Shown piece by piece: positions 1 through 48,496 of a DNA stretch of 64,000 bases. Origin of the DNA: Acidobacteriota bacterium (GTDB lineage Bacteria > Acidobacteriota > Thermoanaerobaculia > Gp7-AA8); contig JAFATB010000005.1 of the NCBI GenBank assembly GCA_019244185.1, positions 112,684-176,683 on the forward strand, given 5' to 3'. Under the pieces are notes generated by a model. The model had not been told where the DNA came from and did no database searches. It saw only the letters and a program-made list of their open reading frames with translations. Numbering within the stretch: the stretch's first letter is position 1; the number at the start of each line of letters is the position of its first letter. Made by a program: the position numbers and the translations under genes.

Positions 1-463
1 CCTCCGCCGCGTCATCGCCGACCCGCACTGCCGCCGCGCGGTGTTCATGCTGCAGAAGGAAGTCGCGGACCGCGTCGTGGCCAAGCCCGGCAGCGATCCG
101 TACGGCTATCTCACGCTGTACGTCGCCGCGTTCGCGAGCGCGCGCATCGCCATGACGCTCGATCCGCGCTCGTTCCATCCGCCGCCGAAAGTACGCAGCG
201 CCGTGGTCGTGCTCGACCCGCGCGATCCGCAGCTGGCCGCCGAGCGCACGCTCGTACTCGATCTCGTCAGCGCGTCGTTCCGCATGCGCCGGAAGAAGCT
301 GGTCAACAACTTGACCGGTTGGCGGAACCTCACGCGCGAGGACGTGCTGTCCTTGATGCAGCGCGCTGCCATCGACCTCGACGTCCGCGCGGAGACGATG
401 TCGCTCGCCGACTTCGACCGCTTCGCCGTCGCCTACTCCGCGCTCGCGTCGCCCGGCTCGTAG
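1..463 (+). CDS. rsmA: 16S rRNA dimethyladenosine transferase RsmA/KsgA, C-terminal part (5' truncated by window)
   Basis: MLQKEVADR...YGYLT...SFHPPPKVRSAVV...SFRMRRKKLVNNL...RAETMSLADF are typical KsgA C-terminal motifs. Confidence 0.9.
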   Translation, partial: LRRVIADPHCRRAVFMLQKEVADRVVAKPGSDPYGYLTLYVAAFASARIAMTLDPRSFHPPPKVRSAVVVLDPRDPQLAAERTLVLDLVSASFRMRRKKLVNNLTGWRNLTREDVLSLMQRAAIDLDVRAETMSLADFDRFAVAYSALASPGS

Positions 464-1491
464 CGCCACTCCGTCTCATGCTTCGCCCCCTCGGCGAACC
501 GTGGGTCGACGTAGTCCTCGAACGCGATGTCATGGTCGAGCACTCCGGTCTCGCGCATCAGCCGGACGATCAGCTCGAAGTCTTTGCGCAGCGGCGTGAG
601 CGGCTGGTACTGCACGCGTTCGAGCGGCTTCGTCAGCGCCCACTTGAGCAGCTTCGGATCCTGGCGATAGTAGAAGCGGCCGACGAAATCGGCGGCGTGC
701 TCGCGGCGCGCGCGGCGCTTCGGCGGGTTCTCGAGCCACAGTCCCGACCGCGCGATGCCGTCGACGAGCACCTGCACCGCCTCCGGCCTGCGGTCGATGA
801 CGTCCTGCCGCACGACGAGCACGCAAGAGATGAAGTCCGGCCAGTACTGCCGCGCGTGGAAGAGCACGCGCCCGAAGCCAGCCGACTCGGCCTGCGACGG
901 ATACGGCTCGCCCATCGAGAACGCGTCGATTGCGCCGGCCGCGAGCGCGCCGGCGACGTCCGGCGGCGCCATCTCGACAAGCCGCAGGTCGCGCGCGCTC
1001 ATGCCGTTCGCCGCCATCGCGCGGAAGAGGATCAGCCGCTCGTCCGAGTAGCGGCTCGGCACGGCCACAATCCTCCCTTTCAGATCGGCGAACGAATGCA
1101 CCGGTCCGTTCTTCTGCACGACCACGGCGCTTCCGTAGCGGTGTCCGAGGTAGACGATCTTGATCGGAACGCCCTGAGCACGCAGGGCAATCGCCATCGG
1201 CGCGACCATGAACGCCGCCTGCATCTGGTTCGAGATCAGCGCTTCCTTGATCTCAGGGAACCCCTGGAACATCCGCGGAATGAACAGATGCCCCGACTTC
1301 GAGTAGGCGGAGATGTAGTCGGTGACCGGGCACGCGAGGTGTCACGTGACCGGGATGTAGGCGACGTTGAGCTTGCGCTCGCGTTCCGGCAATCGATCGT
1401 TGAGCAGCACCTTCCAGTCGACGTTCATCGACAGGTGCGCGGCAGTGATGAACGCCAGCCATGCGGCAACGGCGACTCCGATCTTTCGCAC
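433..1491 (-). CDS. NitT/TauT-family ABC transporter substrate-binding protein, probable selenoprotein (in-frame TGA at 1342-1344, U50-H-L-A-C54)
   Basis: GTG at 1491 follows AAGGAGGAG RBS; hydrophobic N-terminus MRKIGVAVAAWLAFITAAHL; reads ...LNVAYIPVT-TGA-HLACPVTDY... in frame into track ORF 433..1272, which has NMT1/SsuA-like motifs (DLKGRIVAVP, GAIDAFSMGEPY, CVLVVRQD). Confidence 0.85.
1288..1341 (-). promoter_or_regulatory. candidate bacterial SECIS stem-loop immediately 3' of the in-frame UGA
   Basis: mRNA after UGA can pair GUGCC(+9..13)/GGCAU(+50..54) and CCGACU(+20..25)/AGUCGG(+44..49); an alternative short hairpin UCG-C-GUG[CCCGGU]CAC-CGA has a GGU-containing loop. Paired by eye, not folded computationally. 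Confidence 0.4.
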
Positions 1492-1513
1492 GCGACTCCT
1501 CCTTTCGTTCGTG

Positions 1514-2290
1514 TCATTCGTGAAATGCCCAGCGCACCGCGCGCAGCGTCTCGGCGCGGCGGATCAGCGTGTCGAGAATCAGTCCGAGCAGGCCGATGAG
1601 CAGCATGCCGCCGACGACGAGGTCGTAGCGCTTGCCGGCGTTGCGCGCGTCGATGATGAGATAGCCGAGCCCCGAGTCGACGGCGATCATCTCCGCCGCC
1701 ACGAGCACGAGCCACGCGACGCCGAAGGCGATGCGCAGCCCCACCAGAATGCGCGGCAGGATCGCGGGAAAGAGCACGCGCGTGATGAGCGCCCGCGTCG
1801 AGAGCCCGAAGTTGCGCCCCGCCTGCACGTACATCGGCGGCACGTTGCGCACGCCGTTCATCGTGGCCACGATGATCGGGAACACCGAGGCGAGGAAGAT
1901 GAGGAAGATCGGCGCGAGATTGCTGACGCCGAACCAGATCACCGCGAGCGGCATCCACGCCAGCGGCGAGATCGGCCGCAGCATCTGAATGACCGGATTC
2001 GCCGCGCGCGCGAGCGAGCTCCACCACCCCATCGCCAGGCCGACCGGAATCCCGATCGCCACCGCCGCGAGATAGCCGCACGCAACGCGGAACAACGAGT
2101 CGCCCATGTACGCCCACAGCAGTTTTCGTCGTGCGAGCTCGAGCAGTCCGCGCACGACGTCCATCGGCGAGGGAAAGATCTTCGTTCCGCTGACGACGAC
2201 GGCGAGCGCCCAGAACGCGAGCAGCACGAGGCCGAGCACGACCGCACGGATGCGTCCTTCTGCCCTCTGCCTTCTGCCTTCTGCCTTCAT
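1514..2290 (-). CDS. NitT/TauT ABC transporter permease
   Basis: LRPISPLAWMPLAVIWFG, EAA-like loop (VQAGRNFGLS), VAAEMIAVDSGLGYLI. Confidence 0.92.
   Translation of the reverse strand: MKAEGRRQRAEGRIRAVVLGLVLLAFWALAVVVSGTKIFPSPMDVVRGLLELARRKLLWAYMGDSLFRVACGYLAAVAIGIPVGLAMGWWSSLARAANPVIQMLRPISPLAWMPLAVIWFGVSNLAPIFLIFLASVFPIIVATMNGVRNVPPMYVQAGRNFGLSTRALITRVLFPAILPRILVGLRIAFGVAWLVLVAAEMIAVDSGLGYLIIDARNAGKRYDLVVGGMLLIGLLGLILDTLIRRAETLRAVRWAFHE
2256..2288. repeat. heptanucleotide tandem repeat (CCTTCTG)x~4.7 in the first codons of the permease
   Basis: CCTTCTG CCCTCTG CCTTCTG CCTTCTG CCTTC at 2256-2288; encodes KAEGRRQRAEG. Confidence 0.85.
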
Positions 2291-3021
2291 ATCTGATGCG
2301 CCAGCCCGATCTCCCCGAAGATCTCATCGCGCAACGCGATGTATCGCGGATCGCTGAGATCGCGCGGATGCGCGAGATTCACGTCGACGACGCGCCGCAC
2401 GCGTCCGGGCCGCGCTGACAGCACGACCACGCGGTCCGCGAGCTGCACCGATTCCTCGATGTCGTGCGTCACGAAGAGAATCGTCTTCCGCTCCGCCTGC
2501 CAGATCCGAAGCAGTTCGCGCCGCATCTGCAGGCGCGTGATGGAGTCGAGCGCGCCGAACGGCTCGTCGAGATAGAGCACGTCGGGATCGACCGCGAGCG
2601 CGCGCGCCACTTCGAGCCGCTGCTTCATGCCGCCCGAGAGCTCGCGCGGATACGAACGCTCGAATCCCTGCAGGCCGACGAGCTGCACGTACCGCGCGAT
2701 GCGCGCGCGCTTCTCGTCGTCCTTTTGGCGAAAGAGTCCGAAGCCGATGTTCTCTTCGACCGTGAGCCACGGAAAGACGCCGCGCTCCTGAAAGACGAAG
2801 ATGCGCCGCGGATCAGGTCCCGTCACCGGCTCGCCGTCGATGGTGACGCGCCCTTCGGTCGGCGTCACGAATCCGCCCACGATGTTGAGCAGCGTCGACT
2901 TGCCGCAGCCAGAGGGGCCGAGGATGCAGACGAACTCGCCTGCGTTGACCGAGAGGTTGATGTCGTCGAGCACGCGCACGCCGCCGAAGCGCATGCCGAT
3001 CGAGTCGAAGTGAACCTTCAT
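2287..3021 (-). CDS. NitT/TauT ABC transporter ATP-binding protein
   Basis: Start re-chosen at ATG 3021 (MKVHFDSIG), ATGA overlap with upstream permease; Walker A GPSGCGKS, LSGGMKQR, LDEPFGALD, VTHD. Confidence 0.95.
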   Translation of the reverse strand: MKVHFDSIGMRFGGVRVLDDINLSVNAGEFVCILGPSGCGKSTLLNIVGGFVTPTEGRVTIDGEPVTGPDPRRIFVFQERGVFPWLTVEENIGFGLFRQKDDEKRARIARYVQLVGLQGFERSYPRELSGGMKQRLEVARALAVDPDVLYLDEPFGALDSITRLQMRRELLRIWQAERKTILFVTHDIEESVQLADRVVVLSARPGRVRRVVDVNLAHPRDLSDPRYIALRDEIFGEIGLAHQI

Positions 3022-3773
3022 TCCGCGGCGTACCCCCAGCGCACGGATGGCAGCCGTTCGAGCCGGCGCATGAGCAGGTCGAGGCCGATGCCGATGAGAC
3101 CGATGAGCACCATGCCGGCGACGACGAGGTCGTAACGGTTGCCGGCATTGCGCGCGTCGACGATGAGAAAGCCGAGACCGGAGTTCACCGCGATCATCTC
3201 CGCGGCGACGACGACCAGCCACGCGATGCCGAGCGTGATGCGCATGGCGACGATGAGCTGCGGAAGGATGCCGGGGACGACGACGCTCCGCACGAGCTCG
3301 GCGTGCGAGAGTCCGAAGTTGCGCCCCGCCGCGAGATGCACGCCTTCGAGGTTGTGCACCGCTTCGACCGTCGCGGTCGTCAGCGGCAGCACCGAGGCGA
3401 GGAAGATCAGGAAGATCGCCGCCGCGTCGCCGACGCCGAACCAGAGGATGCCGATCGGAATCCACGCGAGCGGCGAGATCGGCCGCAGGATCTGCAGGAT
3501 CGGATTGACCGCGCTGTCGCCGCGTCGCGAGAGGCCTAACGTGACGCCCGCGGGCACCGCGACGGCGACCGCCGCAAGGTAGCCCCACGTCACGCGGAAG
3601 AGCGAGGCCACGACGTAGCGGACGAGGAGCCCTTTCTCCGCGAGCTCGCCGATCGCGCGCAACGTTTGCCACGGCGTCGGCACGAGCGTGCGCGGCGAGG
3701 CCGCGACCGCGAGTTGCCACGCGGCGACCGCAACAGCGATTCCCAGCAATGGAAGGAGTCGTTTCAGACGCAA
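3018..3773 (-). CDS. NitT/TauT ABC transporter permease (second, paralogous)
   Basis: LRPISPLAWIPIGILWFG, AAGRNFGLS, VAAEMIAVNSGLGFLI; TTG start. Confidence 0.92.
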   Translation of the reverse strand: MRLKRLLPLLGIAVAVAAWQLAVAASPRTLVPTPWQTLRAIGELAEKGLLVRYVVASLFRVTWGYLAAVAVAVPAGVTLGLSRRGDSAVNPILQILRPISPLAWIPIGILWFGVGDAAAIFLIFLASVLPLTTATVEAVHNLEGVHLAAGRNFGLSHAELVRSVVVPGILPQLIVAMRITLGIAWLVVVAAEMIAVNSGLGFLIVDARNAGNRYDLVVAGMVLIGLIGIGLDLLMRRLERLPSVRWGYAAE

Positions 3774-3858
3774 ACTCGGGCGAGAGAGTAGCCGGTTTTG
3801 TGACCCCCGTCACGCGCAGCAAATAACCGGCACCTCGTTTGCTCCGAACGCGCCCTCA

Positions 3859-4815
3859 ATGGCGACCCGCTACGAGACACCCGCACGACGACGGAACGAA
3901 CTGGAGCCCCCGACTCCCACGCGCGTTCTCGCCGTTGACGATGACTCCGCTTACCTCCGCCGCCTCGAGGTCGTCCTGACTCGCGCCGGCTTCGACGTCG
4001 TGACCGCCTTCGACGGTCCGACCGCGATCGAGCGCATCCGCGAAGACGGCGACATCGAGATCCTCATCAGCGATCTCACCATGCCCGGCATGGACGGCAT
4101 CGAGACCGTGCGCCAGGCACGCACCGCGTGCGCGTTCCCCGGCCTCTACACGATCCTCCTCACCGCGAACGACGGCGCCGACGTGAAGCTCCGCGCGCTC
4201 GACAGCGGCCTCGATGACTTTCTCACCAAAGCGTCGACCGACTCCGAGATCGTGGCCAAGCTCCGCAGCGCCGCACGACGCCTGGCCATGGAACGCCGCC
4301 TCCAGGTCGAAAACGAAGAACTGCAGACGCTCGCCCTGACCGACGAGCTCACCGGCATCGCCAACCGCCGCGCACTCTTCCGCGCCGCCGAAAGCATCCT
4401 AGGCGCCGGCCGCACGATGACCGTCGTCCTCTTCGACCTCGACCGCTTCAAGCAGATCAACGACAGCTACGGCCACCTCATGGGCGACCGCATCCTCGCC
4501 GACGTCGCCGCCTGCCTCAAAGCCCACACGCGCGTCGGCGACGTGATCGCCCGCTATGGAGGCGACGAGTTCGTCCTCCTCCTCCCCGACACCCCCACCC
4601 CCGAAGCCCGCGCGATCACGCAACGGATCCGCGCCAGAATCGCCGCCCTCCGCTGGACCCATTCCGGCAGCGTCATCTCCATCAACCTCGGCACCGGCCT
4701 CTCCACGGCCGGCTCCGCCAGCACCATCGAAACGCTGCTGGCGGAGTCGGACGCAAAGCTGTACGAGGGGAAGGTGGGGAGGCATCAGGAGCTGGATCTT
4801 TCGATCCAGCTCTGA
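3859..4815 (+). CDS. response-regulator diguanylate cyclase (REC-GGDEF)
   Basis: VLAVDDD...SDLTMPGMDG receiver; TDELTGIANRR, DLDRFKQINDSYGH, RVGD I-site, RYGGDEF; start re-chosen at ATG 3859. Confidence 0.92.
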   Translation: MATRYETPARRRNELEPPTPTRVLAVDDDSAYLRRLEVVLTRAGFDVVTAFDGPTAIERIREDGDIEILISDLTMPGMDGIETVRQARTACAFPGLYTILLTANDGADVKLRALDSGLDDFLTKASTDSEIVAKLRSAARRLAMERRLQVENEELQTLALTDELTGIANRRALFRAAESILGAGRTMTVVLFDLDRFKQINDSYGHLMGDRILADVAACLKAHTRVGDVIARYGGDEFVLLLPDTPTPEARAITQRIRARIAALRWTHSGSVISINLGTGLSTAGSASTIETLLAESDAKLYEGKVGRHQELDLSIQL

Positions 4816-7045: not shown

Positions 7046-10000
7046 TCAGGCGGAGATCGTTTGCGCCGGCAAACGCCGCTCGATCGGCCCAAGGACGCGA
7101 AGTGCGCCCCAATATTGAGGCCTTCGGCGGAGCGGACTTGGGGAATGGAGATATTGCAGTTGTGTGCCGCGCAATGCGTCGGCGGCGGTCATTCCGCCGC
7201 GGATGCGGCGATGAAATGAACTGAAGAAAGTCGCAGCAAACGTATCGTCGATGTCGTACAGAGGAGCGACGACGGCTCCGGCTCCGGCGGCGAGGAAGGC
7301 TCGCGCGAGACTGAGAGAGCCTTCAGCCCTCCGCGTTTTTCCGGTGGCGGTCCTGCAGTTCGCGAGCACGACGAGCGGCTGCCGTCTCAGCGTCCACGAA
7401 CCGACCGTCTCCGGCGACAAGGTCGTCTCCTGCGCGCCGAGCGCAAAACCAGGACCGTCATCGGCACTCGTCGCCGGCTTCGAGTGACCAATGAGGTGAA
7501 TGACGTCCGCGTCCGTAGCCGCGGCGCGAATGACGTCCTGCGTCGCCTGCCGGTCGTAGAAACTGGTCGACCGCGGATAGGCCCCGATCACACCACGAGC
7601 TTCGGCGTCGGCGCTCGCCAGCGGCGTGAGCTGGCGATCGCCGCCGGCAGCACGCTCGGCAACCACAAGGACAGTATCTCGTGCTGACGAGGCAGCCGCA
7701 CCGGAGAGTGCTACCGCCGCACTCGGTGCGACGATCGCCGCGTGCTGCTCGATCAGGTATTCGCCACGACTTCGGTCGTATAACGCCGAAAACGGCACCT
7801 CGTCGTCGAAGGCAGCATCCGGAACCAGGACGAGCATCTCGTTTGGACCCACGCGTGCGCGCAAGGCCAACGGCAAGAGCAAGTCGTGGAGGTCGGCAAC
7901 CGCGCCTTCACACGGCAAGGAGAGCTGGGCCATGCATGTGGCGACTCGATGCACCGCCGCCGCAACCGTCTCCGTCGGCGCTGCGATCCGCACGCCAATC
8001 ACATCGTTCGAAGTCACACACCACACGAGCAGCGCGTCCGGCAAGACGGCCCACTCGAGGAGCGCCGTGTTCGCCGGCACCTGCGCGGCGATTGCGCGTG
8101 CGTCGTTCTGCGGCGCGACATTGCGACGCTCCGCGAGCAGCCGTGCCCGTGAGTGTTCGGCGACGATCAGCGCCTCTCCCCACTCCCCATCGCGCGACAA
8201 TTCTCCTAGCAGCCGCTGACTCGCCTCCGCCGCGACGTCGAGATACGAGATCCGCTCCACGGGATTCAGGAGCTCGCGTCGTTGCTGCTCCACGTACCGC
8301 AGCGCCGTTCGGAAATCGGCACGCGCTGCATGCGAATCGCGCAGTTGCTGGTGCGCGATGCCGCGCGCGAGAAACACGTCGGCGACACGAAACGTGTCGG
8401 AACGCCGCGCCGTGCGGCCGAGGTAGCGATTTGCAGCCGTCATGGCGATTGCAGGTTCGGTGGCGGCAATCGTCCGAGCCAAAACCGCGTCGTAGTTCTC
8501 GACCGCGCGCTCGCGCGTCGACGGGTCGGCGATTGCAGTCGCCGCGTAGGACGCGCGTCGAAATGCTGCCTCTGCACGACCGCGCGCGCCAGAACGATGC
8601 ATAGCGACCGCGTACCAGAGATCGGCGTCCGCGATCGCAGTCGGATCGCCGCTGACGTTCGCGATCGTCTTGAGCCTGCTCGCCACTGCGACCGCAAGCC
8701 GTGGATGCTGGTCATCGCGCAGCAGAGACTGGAGCATCTCCTGCAGGGAAACATGCAGCCGGTCGTGATCGCCCGCTCGGTACAACCCGGCGATTCCCTC
8801 GATGCGCGCCCCCCAACCGTCGTCGGCCGCTCGGAGGTACGATGCTCGCTCGGCGATCATTGCCTGGAGAGCGGCAATCGTGTCGGTTTCGCCGGCCTTT
8901 GTGAGTTGCGCCAGCGCCGAGGCGTAGGGACGGCCGGCGGCGCCGGCGCGGTCTGACGCAACGTACGCCAAGCCTTCGATCCATGACAGCCTCGCGTCAA
9001 GGGTCGGGTACCGTTTCGCGTCGTAGGCTGGCGAACCGCGGACGCGCGCGATCTCGCGCAATGCAACGTCGTAGCGTGCGCAATACCACTGCGCACGGGC
9101 AGTCGCGAGACGCGAAAGCCACTCCAGCCGCGTATATGCCCGCAGATGCTCGCTGGCGGCTTCAAGAAGCGTCGCCGCCCGTTGCACATCGGTTTTCTGA
9201 AGTTGCTGCCCCTGCCGCAGTTCCTGTAAGCCGGACGCCGCGCCCGCGGAACCGTTGCGCCGCAGATCCGCCAATGCCGCGGCGAGAAAAGCATCGCCGC
9301 GGCGTTCGAACGTGGCGGCAGCGGTTCGCAGGGCAAAGTCGTCAGAATCCGCTCCATCGACGATCCGCGCCTCTGCGGCGTCGCGCATTTGTCGTGGATG
9401 CTCGGCCACGAGGCGCGCAATCGCCGCCGCGTCGGATCGCGCGATCGCGCGCGCGAGAAGAGCGCCCCCGTCCCACGAGCTGCTGCTGGTCGGCTCATTG
9501 AGATCGGATAGCTTCTGTCGCGCCTCGGTCGCCCAAGGCGACTGCGGATCGAGGCGGAGGTAATCGGCCCAGGCAACCTTTGCGTCCTCCTGAAGACCGA
9601 CCGCGGTCAGGGCGAGTGCACGATTCCAGGCGATGGGGGGCGAATGCTCGAGGTTCCATGCTCGCTGGACGCACTCCGCTGCGGCGAGATCATCCGTGCG
9701 CGCGCGCGTGTAGAGGGCGCGCGCCGAATAGGCGGCGGAGAGATCGTTGAGCAACGTAGCGTCTTGCGAGGCGGTGATTGCCGCACTTATCGATGACTGA
9801 TGCGTCTCACGCGTCAACGCTTTTTCGAGCGTCGTGACTGCCGCTCGCGGGTCGCCGAGCAGCAACTCGGCAACGCCGACGGCGTGTAGGTTCTTCGGCG
9901 TCGCGTGCGCGTCGGCGGCATGGCGGATGTCCGCTGCCGCAGCCATGAGCGCCCAGCGATGCTCGTCGCCTTTGTCGCTGCCGTCCTGGCCGCCTTCGCC

Positions 10001-10393
10001 ACCGCGCATGTGGTTGTACTCTTTGTACGAGAAACCTCCGCTCAATCGTCCCTCGATCGGGCGACTCTCGAGATCGTCCGCAGCTGCAATCAGCTTGGCG
10101 ATATCCGCCGAGCCGGAACGGCCGGGCAGGAAACGATAGACGTACAAAGCCGCAATCGCCGCGAGCAGCGCCGCAGTTGCAGCCATCCACCAACGCGAGC
10201 GGAAAGGCCGGATTCGAGTGGGCTGAGCCGCGGTGGAGAGCTCGGTCGCCGTCATGAAGACAGAGCGGCACTCGCCGCAAACACTGACGTGTTCGATTGC
10301 CGCGCGGCGGGCGCTCGCGTCCAATGTGCCATCCGCTAAGCCGGCGAGGGTCTCCGGGTCGAGATGATTGGACGGTTCGGTGAGAGTGCTCAT
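7046..10393 (-). CDS. zf-HC2 anti-sigma / TM / TPR / CHAT (caspase-like) domain protein
   Basis: N-term HLDPETLAGLADG...HVSVCGEC (HxxxCxxC), TM WWMAATAALLAAIAALYVY, TPR-like WNRALAL, CHAT motifs LVLVPD, IHLIGH (His), LVVLANC (Cys), AFLAAGA, WGALRVLG. Confidence 0.9.
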   Translation of the reverse strand: MSTLTEPSNHLDPETLAGLADGTLDASARRAAIEHVSVCGECRSVFMTATELSTAAQPTRIRPFRSRWWMAATAALLAAIAALYVYRFLPGRSGSADIAKLIAAADDLESRPIEGRLSGGFSYKEYNHMRGGEGGQDGSDKGDEHRWALMAAAADIRHAADAHATPKNLHAVGVAELLLGDPRAAVTTLEKALTRETHQSSISAAITASQDATLLNDLSAAYSARALYTRARTDDLAAAECVQRAWNLEHSPPIAWNRALALTAVGLQEDAKVAWADYLRLDPQSPWATEARQKLSDLNEPTSSSSWDGGALLARAIARSDAAAIARLVAEHPRQMRDAAEARIVDGADSDDFALRTAAATFERRGDAFLAAALADLRRNGSAGAASGLQELRQGQQLQKTDVQRAATLLEAASEHLRAYTRLEWLSRLATARAQWYCARYDVALREIARVRGSPAYDAKRYPTLDARLSWIEGLAYVASDRAGAAGRPYASALAQLTKAGETDTIAALQAMIAERASYLRAADDGWGARIEGIAGLYRAGDHDRLHVSLQEMLQSLLRDDQHPRLAVAVASRLKTIANVSGDPTAIADADLWYAVAMHRSGARGRAEAAFRRASYAATAIADPSTRERAVENYDAVLARTIAATEPAIAMTAANRYLGRTARRSDTFRVADVFLARGIAHQQLRDSHAARADFRTALRYVEQQRRELLNPVERISYLDVAAEASQRLLGELSRDGEWGEALIVAEHSRARLLAERRNVAPQNDARAIAAQVPANTALLEWAVLPDALLVWCVTSNDVIGVRIAAPTETVAAAVHRVATCMAQLSLPCEGAVADLHDLLLPLALRARVGPNEMLVLVPDAAFDDEVPFSALYDRSRGEYLIEQHAAIVAPSAAVALSGAAASSARDTVLVVAERAAGGDRQLTPLASADAEARGVIGAYPRSTSFYDRQATQDVIRAAATDADVIHLIGHSKPATSADDGPGFALGAQETTLSPETVGSWTLRRQPLVVLANCRTATGKTRRAEGSLSLARAFLAAGAGAVVAPLYDIDDTFAATFFSSFHRRIRGGMTAADALRGTQLQYLHSPSPLRRRPQYWGALRVLGPIERRLPAQTISA

Positions 10394-11292
10394 GGAATTG
10401 CGCCCTCCCCTTTTGTGACCTTCGCCCCTCCGGAAGTCCCACTCGTTGTGGGAGGCCCACCTACGGGATTGGTGGGACGGAAGGCATGGATTTCCCCACC
10501 ATGGGAAAAGAAATCGAAGTGGATGTCCGTGTCGCCGCGATCGAGAAGCGTGGCGACATCGCTCCTTGCGACGCCAGCCCGCTCGAGCGTGCGTCGCATC
10601 GTCCCGTAAAGCCGGTCCAGTCGCTTATAGAGGCGCTTCTGTTCGATGTGCAGCCTTTGCGCGATGTCGGGCACTTTCAGGGCGTGCCAGAAGCGCATCT
10701 GCAGGATGAGGCGGTCCTCGGCGTCGAGAGTGCCGAGGAGCTCGTCGATGGCGCGGGCGGCGGTGCGGGCGGCGCGTTCGCGCTCATGGATCTCGACGCG
10801 TTCGTCGGCGCCGGCGTCGACGGCGGGCGCGTCGGCGCTCACCTCTTCCGAGACGATCGTCGGGCGGGGGGTGCGGGGCGGGAGGCGGACGTAGATCGCC
10901 TCGAGCTCGCAGGCGGTGTATTGCGAGCCGGCCGGGGTGGTCAATACCTTGACCGCCTCGTCGAACGTGTAGCCGTCGCGGGTGACGAGGCGTTCCAGCG
11001 TAATGGCCTTGTCGCCGAGGCGTTTGGCTTCGGCGGAGGGGCGCCATTTCCCCCAGCGTTCGACGCGCCATTGATGCGCGAGGCGGGCGATCACGGTCGT
11101 GAGGTAGGTCGAAAACGAGCTGCGGCCCTCGAACTTGCGGATGACGGCGTAGTCGTCGTCGAGGAGGCGGACGCGGACCTCCTGCATGAACTCGAGGGTC
11201 TCGTCGCGGTTGAGATGGTCCCGGCGCGCGACGAAGGCGGCGATGCGCTCGATCGTGCCAAGGTGCTCGAGGTACGTCTCTTCCGCGTTCAT
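10390..11292 (-). CDS. ECF-type sigma-70 family RNA polymerase sigma factor
   Basis: Region 2 IRKFEGRSSFSTYLTTVIAR; region 4 LDAEDRLILQMRFWHALKVPDIAQRL...LYKRLDR; ATGA overlap with anti-sigma/CHAT gene. Confidence 0.88.
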   Translation of the reverse strand: MNAEETYLEHLGTIERIAAFVARRDHLNRDETLEFMQEVRVRLLDDDYAVIRKFEGRSSFSTYLTTVIARLAHQWRVERWGKWRPSAEAKRLGDKAITLERLVTRDGYTFDEAVKVLTTPAGSQYTACELEAIYVRLPPRTPRPTIVSEEVSADAPAVDAGADERVEIHERERAARTAARAIDELLGTLDAEDRLILQMRFWHALKVPDIAQRLHIEQKRLYKRLDRLYGTMRRTLERAGVARSDVATLLDRGDTDIHFDFFSHGGEIHAFRPTNPVGGPPTTSGTSGGAKVTKGEGAIP

Positions 11293-11437
11293 CGGACCCA
11301 GTGACGCTTAGGCGTCTTACGCAGCCGCGGCGAGCCGCGGGACCTATAGATTTCGGGAACGCCGTCAGTCTAACAGGATCGGTGAGGAACGGAAGGTCGG
11401 ACGCGGCGGACGGAACGTCCACCGTGTCCGAAAGTTT

Positions 11438-11728
11438 TTAGCCGCGGCCTTTGCGGGTGCTTGCGACGTCGTCAGTGCCGTCGAGCCGCTCGACCTGCTG
11501 CTTGCCGCCGAGGCCGTCGTGCGCGGCCTCGCGCGTCTGGCGCTCGTCGAGTTTCGCGCCGGTGCGCTGCGACTCCCACTGTTCGGTGGTCAGTCCGCGC
11601 GGGCGTTCCGCGGCGTCGCCCTGGTACAGGTTGCCTTTCACGATATGGATGACACGGTCACCTTTGACGCGCGTCTTGCGGTCCGGCGAGCCGGCTTTCG
11701 GATCGGGACCGCGTTGGTCGTCTCTCAT
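11438..11728 (-). CDS. small hydrophilic hypothetical protein
   Basis: GGAGG RBS before ATG 11728; 96 aa, charged, no recognised motif. Confidence 0.55.
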   Translation of the reverse strand: MRDDQRGPDPKAGSPDRKTRVKGDRVIHIVKGNLYQGDAAERPRGLTTEQWESQRTGAKLDERQTREAAHDGLGGKQQVERLDGTDDVASTRKGRG

Positions 11729-11785
11729 GGTTGCCTCCGCCTTCGGAAGAGCAAAGGACATGCACGGTGGACGCGAAAAAGAAAC

Positions 11786-11815
11786 TTGACATCATCCCGA
11801 TTAGACTTATTCTAA
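11786..11815 (+). promoter_or_regulatory. sigma70 promoter overlapped by a Fur/PerR-type inverted repeat
   Basis: TTGACA (11786-11791), 16-nt spacer, TATTCT (11808-11813); palindrome TTAGA-CTTAT-TCTAA (11801-11815) covers the -10. Confidence 0.75.
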
Positions 11816-11820
11816 ATTTC

Positions 11821-12243
11821 GTGAACGTCAAACATGAGCCCGGCGAGCAGTTGCGCGAGCATGGCATCCAGCCTTCCGCGCAGCGCGTGGCGGTGGCGGA
11901 TTACGTCCTGCGCACGCTGGAGCATCCGTCCGCCGACCTCGTCTGGAAGCGGGTCAAAGAGAAGTTCCCGTGGATCTCCCGCGCGACGGTCTACAACACG
12001 CTGAACCTCTTCGTCGACAAGGGCCTGCTGCAGCGCCTGACCATCGCCGAGGACTGCGTGATCTTCGACCCGATCACGGAGACGCACCATCACTTCATCG
12101 ACGAGTCCACCGGCGCGATCCACGACGTGCCGTGGGAGCGCGTGCAGGTCTGCAACATCGAGTCGCTGCGCGAGTACGACGTCCACGACTACCAGGTGGT
12201 GATGCGCGGCAAGCTCCGCCGCACGCCGAAACGCACCAAGTGA
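11821..12243 (+). CDS. Fur/PerR family transcriptional repressor
   Basis: LREHGIQPSAQR, HPSADLV, SRATVYNTLNLF, HHHFID; GTG start at 11821 just after the promoter. Confidence 0.9.
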   Translation: MNVKHEPGEQLREHGIQPSAQRVAVADYVLRTLEHPSADLVWKRVKEKFPWISRATVYNTLNLFVDKGLLQRLTIAEDCVIFDPITETHHHFIDESTGAIHDVPWERVQVCNIESLREYDVHDYQVVMRGKLRRTPKRTK

Positions 12244-12295
12244 ATCACCCGCCCGGCCCCGCGCCGGGCACAGTACGCAAAAGGAGAAGATCAAG

Positions 12296-12832
12296 ATGTT
12301 GACTGTTGGAGACAAGTTTCCCGAGTTCAAGGTGACGGCGAACGTCGGCCGCGAAAAAGGCAAAGAGTTCAAGGACGTCACGAACAAGGACTTCGCCGGC
12401 AAGTGGCTGGTCTTTTACGCCTATCCGAAGGATTTCACCTTCATCTGCCCGACGGAGATCGTCGAGTTCGGCCGCCACACGAATGATTTCGCCGACCGCG
12501 ACGCCGTCGTTCTCGGCGGCTCGACCGACAACGAGTTCTCGCACCTCGCGTGGCGCAACGCGCATCCGGACCTCGCCGACATGCCCACTCCGCTCGTGCA
12601 CATCAACCCGAAGCTCGCCAACGAGCTCGGCATCGTGCACAAGGAAGGCGGCGTCGCGCTGCGCGTGACGTTCGTCGTCGATCCGGACGGCATCATCCGC
12701 TCGGTCAGCGCGTACGACCTCTCGGTCGGCCGCAACGTCGGCGAAGTGCTCCGCACCCTCGACGCCCTTCAGACCGACGAGCTTTGCCCCTGCAACTGGC
12801 AGAAGGGCGAAGACACGATCAAGGTGGCGTAG
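12296..12832 (+). CDS. ahpC: peroxiredoxin AhpC
   Basis: YPKDFTFICPTE, GRNVGEVLRTLDALQTDELCPCNW; AGGAG RBS. Confidence 0.95.
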   Translation: MLTVGDKFPEFKVTANVGREKGKEFKDVTNKDFAGKWLVFYAYPKDFTFICPTEIVEFGRHTNDFADRDAVVLGGSTDNEFSHLAWRNAHPDLADMPTPLVHINPKLANELGIVHKEGGVALRVTFVVDPDGIIRSVSAYDLSVGRNVGEVLRTLDALQTDELCPCNWQKGEDTIKVA

Positions 12833-44723: not shown

Positions 44724-46886
44724 TTACTTGCGTACGGCGCGTCGCCGCGGCGGCGCAGGCGCCTGCGTCGACTTCCACGCGCGCAGCAACGCGCGCAGCG
44801 CCTCGGGCGCGTTCTGCGGCGGCGGCGCGCCGAGCTGGTCGTGCGTGTTGACGCCGTGGCACGCGCCGCAGACGCGCACCTCGCCCGGCTGGAACGTGAG
44901 CCAGTAGCGCTCGCGCACGACGGGCGTTCCCGCGGGATCCGTCAGTTGCCAGCTCATCGCACGATGCGCGGGCACGAACGCGGCGACGGAGCCGTCGGCG
45001 GCGACCTGCACGCTGCCCGCCGGTCCCGACGTCGGCGCGTTCTTCACCGCCGGATCGTGCATCGGCCGCGCGAGCACGCGGCGTCCCGCGCGCGGCGAGG
45101 CCGTGCCGCCGAGGCCGCGGAGTTGATCGGCCTGGAAGAGTTGAAGGTGCGCGACGTCGAAAATCTTCGACGTGCCGGTGATCTTCTGCGTCGCGCTTCC
45201 GGTGACGCGCAGGTTGTACGGCTGCTGCTTGTCGGCGAGGTCGCGCGCGGTGACGTTGCGGCTGACGATGACCGCGAGATCGTGTTGCGCGAGGCTGGCG
45301 CGGAACGCCGCGGGATCGACGCCTTCCTCGCGGAAGACGCGCGCCTCCGGCTCTTCGAGCGGCGTCGTGCGCCGCGCGGGCCGCGGACGCGCGCGCACTT
45401 CGACGGGGCTGAGCTCCCACATCGTGCCCGACCACGTCACGAGCTCGTCGGGATCCCAGTACGAAACGTTGCCCTGGATTCCCGACGTGAGCGTCTCGCC
45501 GGGAACGTACGTGCCGCCCTGCGCGGCGAGCGTGCGGATCCGGAACGCGTAACGCGACTGCGGCGCCGTGCGCGTGCCGTCGTTCGCGTCCGCGCGCATC
45601 TCGCTCGTCTGCACGGCGAGCAGCGTGCCGTCGGTGAGCGGCAGCGGTTCGCGGTAGTGTCCCGTCGCGTCGGCGGGCGGCGTGCCGTCCGCAAAGTCGC
45701 GCGTCGAGCGCGGCGTGATGTACTCGACCGCGATGCGATCGGCGGGCAGCGACGGCGGCGCGCTGAAGCGCACGATCTGTCCCGCCGCGTGCGTGTAGAA
45801 CTCCGGCGCGTCGACGCCGAAGTAGACGCCGGGATGCGCCGGGTCTTCGCGCAGCTGCAACAGGTTCTCGACGACGTTCGCGTTCGCGCGGTCGACGTTG
45901 ACGTCGTAGAACTCGGAGAGCCCCGCGTCGTTCATGCTGCGATCGAAGTACGAGAACAGCTCGTGGCGTCCGACGTGGTTCAGCGTCTCTTCCGACGTGC
46001 CGTCTTCGTTGATCTCCCACGGAAAGAAGTGGTTGATGCTGACGCCCTGCAGGTTCGTGCCGTTGAGCAGGTCCGTGCGGCTGCTGCGCGGCTCGGGAAA
46101 GACTTCGACGCGGTCATTGAGACGCGCGGCGTTCGCCGATTCGTCGGCGTAGTCGAACGTACCGTACGAGCCGCCTTCGACCGCGTCGCTGTCCGCCTGC
46201 TGGTCGCGCTGCAGATGGTCCCAGCGCGTGAAGACGATGCGTCCGAAGCTGTCGATGGACGGCGAGAAAAGGCCCGACGGCGCGTGATTCAGCATGCGCA
46301 GGTCGCCGGTCTCGGGATCAAGGCTCCAGAGTCCCGTGACCGTCGGCGCTTCCTCGTATTCATCGAGCTGCGGATAGAGATGCGCCTCGCCGCCGCGCGG
46401 TCGATCGGAGGTGAAGAGAATGCGATCGTCGGTGCCGTAAAACGGACTGACGTTGTTGTACTCGGCGGGCTGGTTCGCAATCTTATGAATCGCCGGCGTG
46501 TCGTGCTCGCCGAGTCCCGTGATCTCGTAGATCTGCCAGCGATACGTTTCCCAGACGTAGCGGCGCGTCGGTGCGCCGATGACCATGCTGAAGAGCGCCT
46601 TCGTGCCGCTCCAGTGCACCGACGGCTCGCGCACCGCGATCGACGTCGCGCCCTGCATGCCGTCGCCGCCGAACCCCGCCGCGCGCGTGAGGTTCTTCAG
46701 CGTTCCGTCGGGATAGCGGATCCACAGATCGCCGCCGCGCGGCGCCTCCGCCACCGCCGCGTTCTGATTCCCGAACGTCGACGCAACGGCCGTGAAGTCC
46801 CCAGGCACCGGCACCTGCGTCACGAACAGAATCGGATTGCGCAGCTGCACGGCAGCTACGACCGCGGCCAACAACAAAGCATGCAT
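44724..46886 (-). CDS. secreted hydrazine-synthase-alpha-like beta-propeller protein with heme c motif and PRRRAVRK tail
   Basis: TolB-like repeats (REPSVHWSG, DRILFTSDR, GRIVFTRWDH), DGSVAAFVPA...WLTFQPGEVRVCGACH (CxxCH). Confidence 0.7.
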   Translation of the reverse strand: MHALLLAAVVAAVQLRNPILFVTQVPVPGDFTAVASTFGNQNAAVAEAPRGGDLWIRYPDGTLKNLTRAAGFGGDGMQGATSIAVREPSVHWSGTKALFSMVIGAPTRRYVWETYRWQIYEITGLGEHDTPAIHKIANQPAEYNNVSPFYGTDDRILFTSDRPRGGEAHLYPQLDEYEEAPTVTGLWSLDPETGDLRMLNHAPSGLFSPSIDSFGRIVFTRWDHLQRDQQADSDAVEGGSYGTFDYADESANAARLNDRVEVFPEPRSSRTDLLNGTNLQGVSINHFFPWEINEDGTSEETLNHVGRHELFSYFDRSMNDAGLSEFYDVNVDRANANVVENLLQLREDPAHPGVYFGVDAPEFYTHAAGQIVRFSAPPSLPADRIAVEYITPRSTRDFADGTPPADATGHYREPLPLTDGTLLAVQTSEMRADANDGTRTAPQSRYAFRIRTLAAQGGTYVPGETLTSGIQGNVSYWDPDELVTWSGTMWELSPVEVRARPRPARRTTPLEEPEARVFREEGVDPAAFRASLAQHDLAVIVSRNVTARDLADKQQPYNLRVTGSATQKITGTSKIFDVAHLQLFQADQLRGLGGTASPRAGRRVLARPMHDPAVKNAPTSGPAGSVQVAADGSVAAFVPAHRAMSWQLTDPAGTPVVRERYWLTFQPGEVRVCGACHGVNTHDQLGAPPPQNAPEALRALLRAWKSTQAPAPPRRRAVRK

Positions 46887-46966
46887 ATGCGCGGCATTAT
46901 CGGGCGTGCCGTGCACGAACGGACGTGCGTTGGATCACGCGTCCAACGCACGTCCGAAGCAACCGC

Positions 46967-48496
46967 TCACTGCCCGCCCTGGAAGAGGGTCGCCAGTTTG
47001 TTGATCTGGAAGAGGAAGCCCGCGAAGATGCGGATGTCGTCGGGGCCGCGCCCCGCGTTGATGTGGAGCCCCACGTAAAACGGAATCGCATCCCCGCCGA
47101 AACCCGGGAACCTCGTGCCCGCGTCAACCACAATGCGATTCGCGTCCCGCTCGTTCGCAAACTGTTCGAAGCGCCCGTATGAGAGCTCGACAAAGCGGAG
47201 GGGCACGATGTTCTCGACATCGGTTTCCGCAGTTTCAGCTGCGGTCTGATGCTGCGTGAATCGGAAGCCGATCTGTGCTCGGTAAATCGTCGTATCGCCG
47301 TTGGCCTCCTGCTTCTGGCGCGTGGTGAGGCCCGTGCGCGTGAAGACGCCCAGGCGCAACGCATCTGTCGGCACGCCGGTCTTCATCGACGTCTGGGTGT
47401 AGCTCGACCAGCGTTCCGGCTGCCAGAGCATGAAGTAGGTCCCGGAGAACGCGTTCTCCAGGCCTTTCGGACTTTTGTCTGTCGTCGGCGCCGGATCGTC
47501 GGCAGATGCATGCGCCTTGCTCGCGGCGGTGCCAGGCGTCTTCGTCGCGTCGCCGAACGGGAAGCTCGATACTTCCATGTCGATGCCGGTGTGGAAAAGC
47601 GAACGACCGAGAGGGCGGCGGTCGAGAGGCTCTTTGCTGTTGTACCAGATGGTGTCGAACGTGGCGCGCACGAGCGGGTCCGTCTGATTGAATCCGGTGC
47701 TGTTGCCGTCCTGATCGTAGTCGTTGGTGAACGTGCCGCCCATGAAGAGTTCCGTATAGAGGCGCCGGCTGTGGAAGGTGTCGAACGTGCGGATCGCCGT
47801 CAGCTGAAACGTCTGTTCGTGCTGCGTGTTGAGCGCGCCGCTATCGTCGAGCGGCGTGACGAGGAGCTCGAGCTCCGTATCACTGCCGGTCTGCAGTGAA
47901 AACGGTGCGCGCCCGTTCGCGTCGGTCACGACGTCGACTCCGGCGTCGCTTCGCGCCGCTTTCGGATCGCTGAAGACGAAACCGTCCTTGTTGCCGAGGA
48001 TGCGGATGTGAAGTTTCTGAAATCCGGCGGGATCTCCGTTCTTTCCGGTGGCGACGACCGCGAGCAGATCGTTGCCGTAGATCCGCTGCGGCTGGAGGGC
48101 GCCGGTCTTCTGATCGAGCACGACTTTCGTGATGTGCCGCAGCGGAAAGACCTGCGTCAACGCGCCGTCTTTCGTCGAGACGGTGAGCACCACATCGGCC
48201 GTAGTCCCGAGCTTCATCGTGAAGTCGTTCGTGCCCGGTGCGAGCTCGAGGGACTGGGCGAAGGCCGCGCCGCCTTTCGGTCCGACCCCCGCATCGGGCG
48301 TCACCTGCAGGACGATGGGCTGCGCGGGCGGGGCGCCGGTATCGGTCTTCACCACGATGGCGAGATCGTGGTTCTGTCCCGTTTTGAGCGGGCCGTCCGC
48401 GCCCGTGAGCTCGATGGACTTGACCGTTTGCGCGCTGAGGCTCGAAGCCCACAGCACCGCTGCTGCGCCGATCAGGCGGATGGCTCGTGATTGCAT
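46967..48496 (-). CDS. secreted / outer-membrane hypothetical protein
   Basis: AAGGAG RBS, signal peptide, Ig-like N-half (TDANGRA), amphipathic beta-strand C-half. Confidence 0.7.
   Translation of the reverse strand: MQSRAIRLIGAAAVLWASSLSAQTVKSIELTGADGPLKTGQNHDLAIVVKTDTGAPPAQPIVLQVTPDAGVGPKGGAAFAQSLELAPGTNDFTMKLGTTADVVLTVSTKDGALTQVFPLRHITKVVLDQKTGALQPQRIYGNDLLAVVATGKNGDPAGFQKLHIRILGNKDGFVFSDPKAARSDAGVDVVTDANGRAPFSLQTGSDTELELLVTPLDDSGALNTQHEQTFQLTAIRTFDTFHSRRLYTELFMGGTFTNDYDQDGNSTGFNQTDPLVRATFDTIWYNSKEPLDRRPLGRSLFHTGIDMEVSSFPFGDATKTPGTAASKAHASADDPAPTTDKSPKGLENAFSGTYFMLWQPERWSSYTQTSMKTGVPTDALRLGVFTRTGLTTRQKQEANGDTTIYRAQIGFRFTQHQTAAETAETDVENIVPLRFVELSYGRFEQFANERDANRIVVDAGTRFPGFGGDAIPFYVGLHINAGRGPDDIRIFAGFLFQINKLATLFQGGQ

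Follow-up and report, generated by a model that had tools for sequence, protein, structure and literature searches.

A candidate selenocysteine-containing NMT1/SsuA-type ABC binding protein from Acidobacteriota and its proposed metal site

Selenocysteine (Sec, U) is rare in transporters. The first ATP-binding cassette (ABC) substrate-binding proteins (SBPs) found to carry it were described in 2022-23, namely SaoB, whose motif is CU, and in rare cases SaoX (Haft and Gwadz, 10.1101/2022.07.06.499078; J Bacteriol 2023), and the accessible text of that work states that no ABC binding protein with Sec was known to its authors before SaoB. In the available text of a 2026 review, whose Table 1 covers 119 prokaryotic selenoprotein families or subfamilies, SaoB, SaoX and BtuF are the sole binding-protein entries (PMC13188914). 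The present analysis concerns a 64,000-nucleotide stretch of the genome of an Acidobacteriota bacterium (assembly GCA_019244185.1, contig JAFATB010000005.1, positions 112,684 to 176,683; hereafter the window) and, within it, a gene at 433..1491 on the minus strand whose reading frame contains UGA as codon 50. This codon is very probably decoded as Sec, which would make the gene a genuine, mis-annotated selenoprotein gene. The product is a membrane-anchored NMT1/SsuA-type (NitT/TauT) ABC substrate-binding protein, predicted to be exported. Judged by its motif and profile matches, it is neither a SaoB nor a SaoX and represents a new family within the known kind of Sec-containing ABC binding proteins, the fourth binding-protein selenoprotein beside SaoB, SaoX and BtuF.

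Like the window protein, SaoX (NF040735, an extra SAO substrate-binding lipoprotein) is an SsuA/NMT1-like SBP. In the descriptions available, its conserved Cys residues converge in the cleft, a single one close to SaoX position 50 and two adjacent ones (CC) around 224-225, and it is occasionally a selenoprotein, listed with a UxP motif in the review table (PMC13188914). The SaoX profile matches the window protein weakly (58.2 bits, residues 79-247), and the equivalog cut-off of 300 is not reached. Whereas SaoX combines a lipoprotein signal with UxP, the window protein combines a membrane helix with U-H-L-A-C; the hosts also differ, being soil Acidobacteriota and Myxococcota for the window family and strict anaerobes such as C. 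difficile for the SAO proteins. The nine-gene SAO neighbourhood (SaoA, P, B, X, C, L, T, E, D) was not seen in a Pfam scan of the neighbours, on which the Sao hidden Markov models (HMMs) were not run. SaoB (NF040727), correctly cited in an earlier note on this DNA as the precedent for a Sec-bearing ABC SBP, resembles the window protein in placing Sec in the ligand pocket, where the accessible account proposes it as a ligand for a substrate that is a metal or an organometallic compound; its database entries are also cut at the UGA. In that account SaoB differs by its CU dipeptide motif and by belonging to another SBP lineage (related to 3VVE and 4ZV2). BtuF, the cobalamin SBP (CxxU), is likewise an ABC SBP with a Sec variant, although the review table places it in a different SBP class (cd01144), and TsoA (LULAxC motif in the same table) shares the U-x-x-x-C spacing of the window protein. 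SaoB and TsoA (NF045695) were absent among the 7 NCBIfam families matched at E <= 0.01. An NMT1/SsuA-type U-x-x-x-C family is not in Table 1 of the review, and the review text available contains none of the strings PF13379, PF09084, NMT1 and UxxxC (PMC13188914). The accessible part of the deep-Sep paper (PMC12013277) contains nothing relevant to the window family, and NCBIfam release 20 has no dedicated model for it. The family was not found in print in the literature searched, with supplements and Haft and Tolstoy 2025 outside the scope.

In current records the gene appears in shortened form. The open reading frame list gives 433..1272 (minus strand) alone, and the recorded protein (P0006) has the same 279 amino acids (aa), with 100% identity and 79% coverage against the read-through product. 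Codon 56 is GTC in the window and is not a start codon, so that the called product begins at M74; it is without strand 1, helix 1 or any export signal, in line with the earlier note, which had described the frame called from 1272 as having neither signal nor anchor. Translation of the minus-strand frame from 1491 to 433 meets a single internal stop, TGA at 1344-1342 (codon 50, 1342..1344), in the context NVAYIPVT-U-HLAC-PVTDY, and the full-length gene (433..1491) comprises 352 codons followed by a TAG stop at 435-433. The inferred start is the GTG at 1489..1491, the first start after a ribosome-binding site of the GGAGG type read from the sequence (AAGGAGGAG, 1496..1504, minus strand), from which it is separated by a 4-nucleotide (nt) spacer. 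Relatives start with ATG, 1-5 codons farther upstream than this GTG. The start opens into a hydrophobic N-terminus, VRKIGVAVAAWLAFITAAHL, which sequence and model place in a helix of residues 2-23 (1423..1488), a signal anchor or signal peptide; relatives keep a W and a TAAH motif in this helix. The earlier description of the frame as reaching a GTG at 1491 with a strong ribosome-binding site and a hydrophobic N-terminus, and as interrupted by one TGA, is thereby borne out.

The read-through protein was searched and modelled with C in place of U. The Pfam family NMT1_2 (PF13379) matches residues 37-261 at 108.1 bits (cut-off 24.7), so a single domain runs across the TGA; NMT1 (PF09084) also matches above its cut-off (62.4 vs 20.5 bits), and the NCBIfam model TIGR01728 (SsuA_fam) stays below it (120.3 vs 163.5 bits). 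An AlphaFold2 model built on a 45-sequence alignment has a predicted local distance difference test score (pLDDT) of 96.2 and a predicted template modelling score (pTM) of 0.91. Besides the N-terminal helix, it shows β-strand 1 at residues 42-45, U50 in the next loop and C54 opening a helix at 53-61, as expected from the earlier placement of U50 just past the first β-strand with a Cys four residues on. This Cys54, encoded by TGC at 1330..1332 (minus strand), is invariant in the subfamily and is the U-x-x-x-C partner, a proposed metal ligand. Fold matches to the model are 3UN6 (the best), SsuA, TauA, NrtA and CmpA.

Conservation of the TGA carries much of the argument. A protein-guided scan of species-representative genomes found 21 loci with 68-90% identity, each with TGA at codon 50 and an intact upstream frame. 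After removal of duplicates, 26 distinct TGA loci stand beside 15 TGC/TGT loci at codon 50 (the Cys-form counts include locus L045 from an unpublished genome, G024). Among 401 genomes of the phylum sampled, 21 contain a homologue (E <= 1e-60), with one in-frame TGA in 6 (the source genome included) and none in 15. The motif PVT-[U/C]-[HQ]-L-[AT]-C-PVTD-[YF] holds down to 39% identity, and a degenerate DNA pattern of the motif with TGA occurs in at least 119 stretches of species-representative genomes. The TGA is therefore not unique to this assembly; uniqueness, joined with a lack of Sec machinery in the genome, is what the earlier note would have counted against Sec. The 80 matches listed for the TGA pattern include 63 with Acidobacteriota-type labels and 17 others: 6 Myxococcota, 3 Planctomycetota, 2 Armatimonadota, 1 Sericytochromatia, 1 Actinomycetota, 2 'Heliobacteriaceae', 1 'Comamonas sp. 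KCTC 72670' and 1 Ca. Gilichinskyi. Among the Myxococcota matches listed are two cultured isolates, Myxococcus sp. RHSTA-1-4 and Archangium gephyra PVMSAZ. As a side observation, the stretch titled Comamonas sp. KCTC 72670 (L117) holds an SBP fragment nearly identical to that of Myxococcus sp. RHSTA-1-4 (L077), and its organism name may be ill-matched to the content of the record.

Residues 51-55, directly after the TGA, are invariant in relatives. Across the 26 Sec-form loci, 67% of codon differences are synonymous at -24..-1 and 63% at +1..+120, compared with just 2-13% in shifted frames; at the level of codons, purifying selection is thus comparable on both sides of the TGA and acts in one frame. 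All 13 full-length homologous proteins that were aligned have Cys in the U50 column. Non-Cys residues at position 50 are absent from the close subfamily, and D, H or S occur only in remote relatives of 25-35% identity. The comparison proposed in the earlier note, a search for homologues that carry Cys or TGA at this codon and are conserved to either side of it, accordingly turned out in favour of Sec, and the non-Cys residues that it regarded as a warning are confined to remote homologues. The best 120 protein-database matches include 91 of 293-301 aa that start just past the TGA, from which it follows that the family is systematically cut at its N-terminus in annotation. If UGA codon 50 is read as Sec, the 279- and 297-aa database products are artefacts of truncation, and the gene is mis-annotated in the way that the earlier note had suspected.

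The sequences fall into the subfamily of the window protein (subfamily A), a sister subfamily B and a third subfamily C. In subfamily C, TGA is found at the same codon in 2 of the 31 loci with a readable site, L181 and L210 (Planctomycetia and an uncultured bacterium), which places Sec at this position in at least three subfamilies. The L210 motif is U-N-L-T-L, without a second Cys, so that Sec also occurs without a U-x-x-x-C partner.

The source genome has what is needed for Sec insertion. The search for selA, selB, selC and selD suggested by the earlier note returned selA (479.5 bits), selB (378.1), selD (371.8) and tRNA-Sec (71.1), all over their curated cut-offs. SelA likewise scores above its cut-off in each of the 6 TGA-form genomes tested (the source genome included) and in 8 of 10 Cys-form genomes. 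The selD of the source genome is itself of the Sec type, with an in-frame TGA in TTGG-U-ACKLG (C6:611614-612546, minus strand, L008; outside the window). TGA otherwise serves as an ordinary stop there: both permease genes and the ATPase gene next to the binding-protein gene end in it, which excludes a reassigned code. SelB and tRNA-Sec would then decode UGA codon 50 of the binding-protein gene as Sec.

Two further observations concern Sec in this genome. A small, canonical hairpin, GGUC-AGGAU-GACC, starts 15 nt past the U of the selD UGA and provides an in-genome reference for a Sec insertion sequence (SECIS); it looks quite unlike the region after the binding-protein UGA. Elsewhere in the genome, on contig C26 (minus strand, 45692-47005, TGA at 46847-46849; L213, outside the window), there is a second candidate selenoprotein, an unannotated, exported protein of 437 aa that combines thioredoxin-like and TPR parts and carries the motif WAPW-U-HTC. 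Its Pfam Thioredoxin_7 domain (residues 27-108) runs across the TGA, which is followed by a strong hairpin (-27.6 kcal/mol over 60 nt), and it appears to belong with the known thioredoxin-like selenoproteins that have a UxxC motif.

The evidence that weighs against Sec decoding comes from the SECIS. Subfamily A comprises 68 distinct Sec sequences and subfamily B 20. In subfamily A, a convincing SECIS was not found by folding, RNAalifold, pair counts, a covariation scan or Rfam. A pairable stem-loop after the UGA, claimed in the earlier note, can indeed be drawn by hand (+8 to +44 after the U of the UGA, 1300..1336, minus strand), with 82.4% of cells paired in the 68 sequences; this best candidate amounts to just -1.8 kcal/mol in the window, and the local fold after the UGA is no better than shuffles (z = -0.15). 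Nor does covariation in this hairpin rise above shuffles, the observed value being reached by 68/500 with the 68 sequences and by 363/500 with 24 sequences. The structures given by RNAalifold on 24, 26 and 69 sequences are weak and inconsistent. A shifted structure resembling that of subfamily B is also weak in subfamily A (78.7% of cells paired, a single pair changed on both sides, the score reached by 8/500 shuffles). An unbiased scan for covarying pairs between -30 and +150 revealed no helix, Sec and Cys forms fold about equally (-7.5 vs -7.2 kcal/mol), and Rfam gave no match at E <= 10.

Three other arrangements were considered for subfamily A and rejected. In a hairpin that includes the UGA itself (CACGUGA/UCGCGUG), half of the relatives lose two pairs, and the correlated changes (C/C vs G/G) are a lineage signal and not base pairing. 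In the centroid-fold hairpin of CCGACU with AGUCGG, third-position changes run against pairing. The subfamily B structure does not transfer in register to subfamily A.

In subfamily B (motif VGFLPVT-U-HLTC...RFESQRF), which is about 45-50% identical to the window protein, a three-part hairpin begins 10 nt past the UGA and is accompanied by a second hairpin, with 95% of cells paired. In six pairs both partners have changed, at synonymous sites, and the observed values are reached by 0/500 shuffles. The 5' arm of this element, UGCCCGGU, is also invariant in subfamily A. At two synonymous positions of the arm, the Sec forms have TGC (Cys54) in 87/88 and CCG in 87/88, and the same two codons are found in 10/15 and 11/15 of the Cys forms, respectively; kin within these counts are not independent, and Fisher p-values therefore overstate the difference. 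We read this as nucleotide-level constraint on UGCCCGGU that is specific to Sec forms, with the 3' partner in subfamily A still undefined. The second hairpin of subfamily B (L064-L136) is a near-invariant 7-bp stem at +49 to +65, GACUCGG-UUC-GAGUC, with 99.3% of cells paired. It lies directly after the SECIS hairpin and over the R-F-E-S codons, and may belong to the SECIS, act as a ribosome pause site or simply reflect conserved codons.

The lack of a strong SECIS in subfamily A is what speaks for reading through the UGA without Sec, by near-cognate suppression (with Trp, Cys or Arg) or by lineage-specific reassignment. Such read-through is very unlikely, given that TGA is the normal stop of three neighbouring genes, that homologues carry Cys at the site in the classic Sec/Cys pairing, that selA accompanies the TGA form in every genome tested and that the sister subfamily has a covariation-supported SECIS at the same site; the TGA forms also span several phyla without a common altered code. 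It is harder still to credit a true stop, whether the locus is viewed as a pseudogene, as a sequencing error or as a split gene encoding a 49-residue membrane peptide and a truncated SBP. Gene callers do treat the TGA in this way, as the lengths of the window record (279 aa) and of most relatives (293-301 aa) attest. Yet the same TGA recurs in 26 distinct, independent assemblies and in the at least 119 genome stretches, purifying selection is equal on both sides in one frame, and relatives show no change in residues 51-55, which separate the TGA from any start further on. Together with codon 56 being GTC, which leaves a called product from M74 without strand 1, helix 1 or export signal, this conservation excludes an error, a pseudogene or a split gene.

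With codon 50 read as Sec, the question becomes what the residue does. The closest solved protein is 3UN6, an ABC ligand-binding component of S. aureus with 'with Zin[c bound]' in its title, both by sequence (E = 3.1e-27, residues 24-334) and by fold (Foldseek E = 7e-27, target-normalised TM 0.91, root-mean-square deviation 2.0 Å). HMM alignment puts the His of ITH in 3UN6 on U50, LGHHEGN on LGHRYGS with His117 (codon at 1141..1143, minus strand) and CCVLV on SCVLV with Cys223 (ISCVLVVR, codon at 823..825, minus strand); His117 and Cys223, placed by the family alignment, are proposed metal ligands. In 45 aligned family members position 50 is C in 19, D in 16, H in 8 and S in 2, while position 117 is His in 40/45 and position 223 is Cys in 38/45. 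The joint pattern at positions 50/51/54/117/222/223 is CHCHSC in the window subfamily (16 sequences) and DHLHCC, HSLHCC or similar in other members, and throughout the 45 sequences Cys54 is present exactly where Cys222 is missing, and the reverse. This swap, taken with the ligand columns, is the pattern expected of a four-ligand metal site made up of U/C50, C54 or C222, H117 and C223. 3UN6 itself differs from the window protein in several respects: the two share 22% identity, 3UN6 has His at position 50 and CC where the window protein has S-C with an extra Cys54, it is lipid-anchored or secreted rather than helix-anchored, and no Sec forms of it have been reported.

It is about an even call, leaning slightly towards yes, that Sec50, Cys54, His117 and Cys223 hold a thiophilic metal in a four-ligand cleft site, and that this site is homologous to the one in Zn-bound 3UN6. 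What tells against the proposal is that it is drawn from alignment patterns, from which the convergence of the four residues is deduced. The Sec/Cys-liganded uptake system proposed by the earlier note stands in its transporter components, two permeases and one ATPase, and its ligand part is better put as a possible Sec-Cys-His-Cys metal site. Related proteins are known from another context: in the accessible texts, NitT/TauT binding proteins encoded beside clade-B carbon monoxide dehydrogenase (CODH) genes resemble 3UN6 (PMC6344411, PMC13592312), and in an AlphaFold 3 model of related SBPs two Cys together with one or two His coordinate zinc or another metal (PMC13592312). The substrate of these clade-B CODH-associated transporters is left open in the available text of that work (PMC13592312).

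In the mechanism proposed here, Sec50 would sit in the loop past β-strand 1, on the floor of the ligand cleft, and would hold a thiophilic metal ion together with Cys54, His117 and Cys223, in a site homologous to those of 3UN6 and the clade-B CODH-associated binding proteins. The transporter may import the metal itself or a small ligand bound to the protein-held metal. Replacement of S by Se may tune the affinity, the exchange rate or the oxidation resistance of this extracytoplasmic site. Taken as a whole, this account (Sec decoding, metal site, importer) is considered likely. A different role, in which Sec50 is redox-active or catalytic and not a metal ligand, either by forming a selenenylsulfide with Cys54 or by acting as a nucleophile on the substrate in the manner of Cys27 of DszB, seems rather improbable. 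It would suit the general trend, since, according to the accessible review text (PMC13188914), redox proteins with a UxxC or CxxU motif make up most of the prokaryotic selenoproteins known, and the modelled position of C54 at a helix N-terminus is like that of the resolving Cys of thioredoxin-like motifs. The enzymes DszB and Thi5, which have the SBP fold, are among the fold matches, and Haft and Gwadz raise, in the text available, possible catalysis by Sec-bearing transporter subunits (10.1101/2022.07.06.499078). That remote homologues have D, H or S in place of Sec50 fits a ligand position better, though, and the C54/C222 swap across subfamilies holds the number of ligands constant. Moreover, the closest structure is a Zn-bound binding protein, and the gene belongs to an operon that encodes a full ABC importer and has no redox partner gene close by.

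A more far-reaching proposition is advanced tentatively, at rather less than even confidence. It holds that these proteins make up a large, uncatalogued family of soil-bacterial selenoproteins, spread over at least 119 species genomes of several phyla and including those of cultured Myxococcus and Archangium isolates, in which Sec serves as a direct metal ligand in the cleft of an extracytoplasmic ABC SBP, and that it defines a new, metal-centred class of NitT/TauT importers. Such importers would take up a thiophilic metal or metalloid, or else a small S/Se species caught on the metal; the logic would be shared with the clade-B CODH transporters, and the switch between Sec and Cys would have been repeated at one position in at least three subfamilies.

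Whatever the role of Sec50, the family extends Sec-bearing binding proteins beyond the strict anaerobes that carry SAO proteins. As it is common in soil Acidobacteriota and present in Myxococcota, Planctomycetota and Armatimonadota, a noticeable part of the selenium that soil bacteria require may go into it. Almost all database entries of the family are N-terminally cut, and annotation pipelines need a model made for it that allows for Sec. Through its conserved site (U/C50, C54 or C222, H117, C223) the family is linked to Zn-bound 3UN6 and the clade-B CODH transporters, and the Sec forms may point to the residue that matters most in it. Cultured hosts (Myxococcus sp. RHSTA-1-4, Archangium gephyra) put the question within bench reach.

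The binding-protein gene is the last of a four-gene operon on the minus strand in the order permease, ATPase, permease, binding protein. Permease 1 (3018..3773, about 251 aa, start uncertain; Pfam BPD_transp_1, 67.5 bits), the ATPase (2287..3021, boundaries from the sequence; ABC_tran, 116.5 bits) and permease 2 (1514..2290, 258 aa; BPD_transp_1, 79.5 bits) follow one another closely, with the ATG of the ATPase overlapping the stop of permease 1 and the ATG of permease 2 overlapping the stop of the ATPase (ATGA in both cases). The permeases contain no conserved Cys pair, there being one Cys in permease 2 and zero in permease 1. Subfamily C (Verrucomicrobiota, Planctomycetota) has the operon order SBP-permease-ATPase. 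In the window the operon is flanked by a KsgA-like gene and by genes for a GGDEF response regulator, a CHAT protein, a sigma factor, Fur and AhpC. Conservation across 22 close loci is limited to the ABC genes and the synteny on the KsgA side, and the neighbours in the 32 loci of subfamily C, TrpD-like and glycine-cleavage genes, reflect housekeeping synteny. These neighbourhoods (window, 22 close loci, 32 subfamily C loci) give no hint of the substrate, which is a further point against the proposed account as a whole. No CODH gene and no redox partner gene were found among the window neighbours.

The response-regulator/GGDEF diguanylate cyclase gene (3688-4815, plus strand) is divergent from the ABC operon, and its called start overlaps the permease 1 reading frame. 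It stands beside the operon in just 3 of the 22 related loci and so probably has no functional tie to it. Farther along the window, a gene for a 1115-aa TPR/CHAT-domain protein (7046-11307, minus strand) is translationally coupled to one for a sigma-70 region-4 protein, the two reading frames overlapping at 10390-10393. Adjoining this pair, at 11668-12832 on the plus strand, a gene for a Fur-family regulator is followed by one for an AhpC/1-Cys peroxiredoxin.

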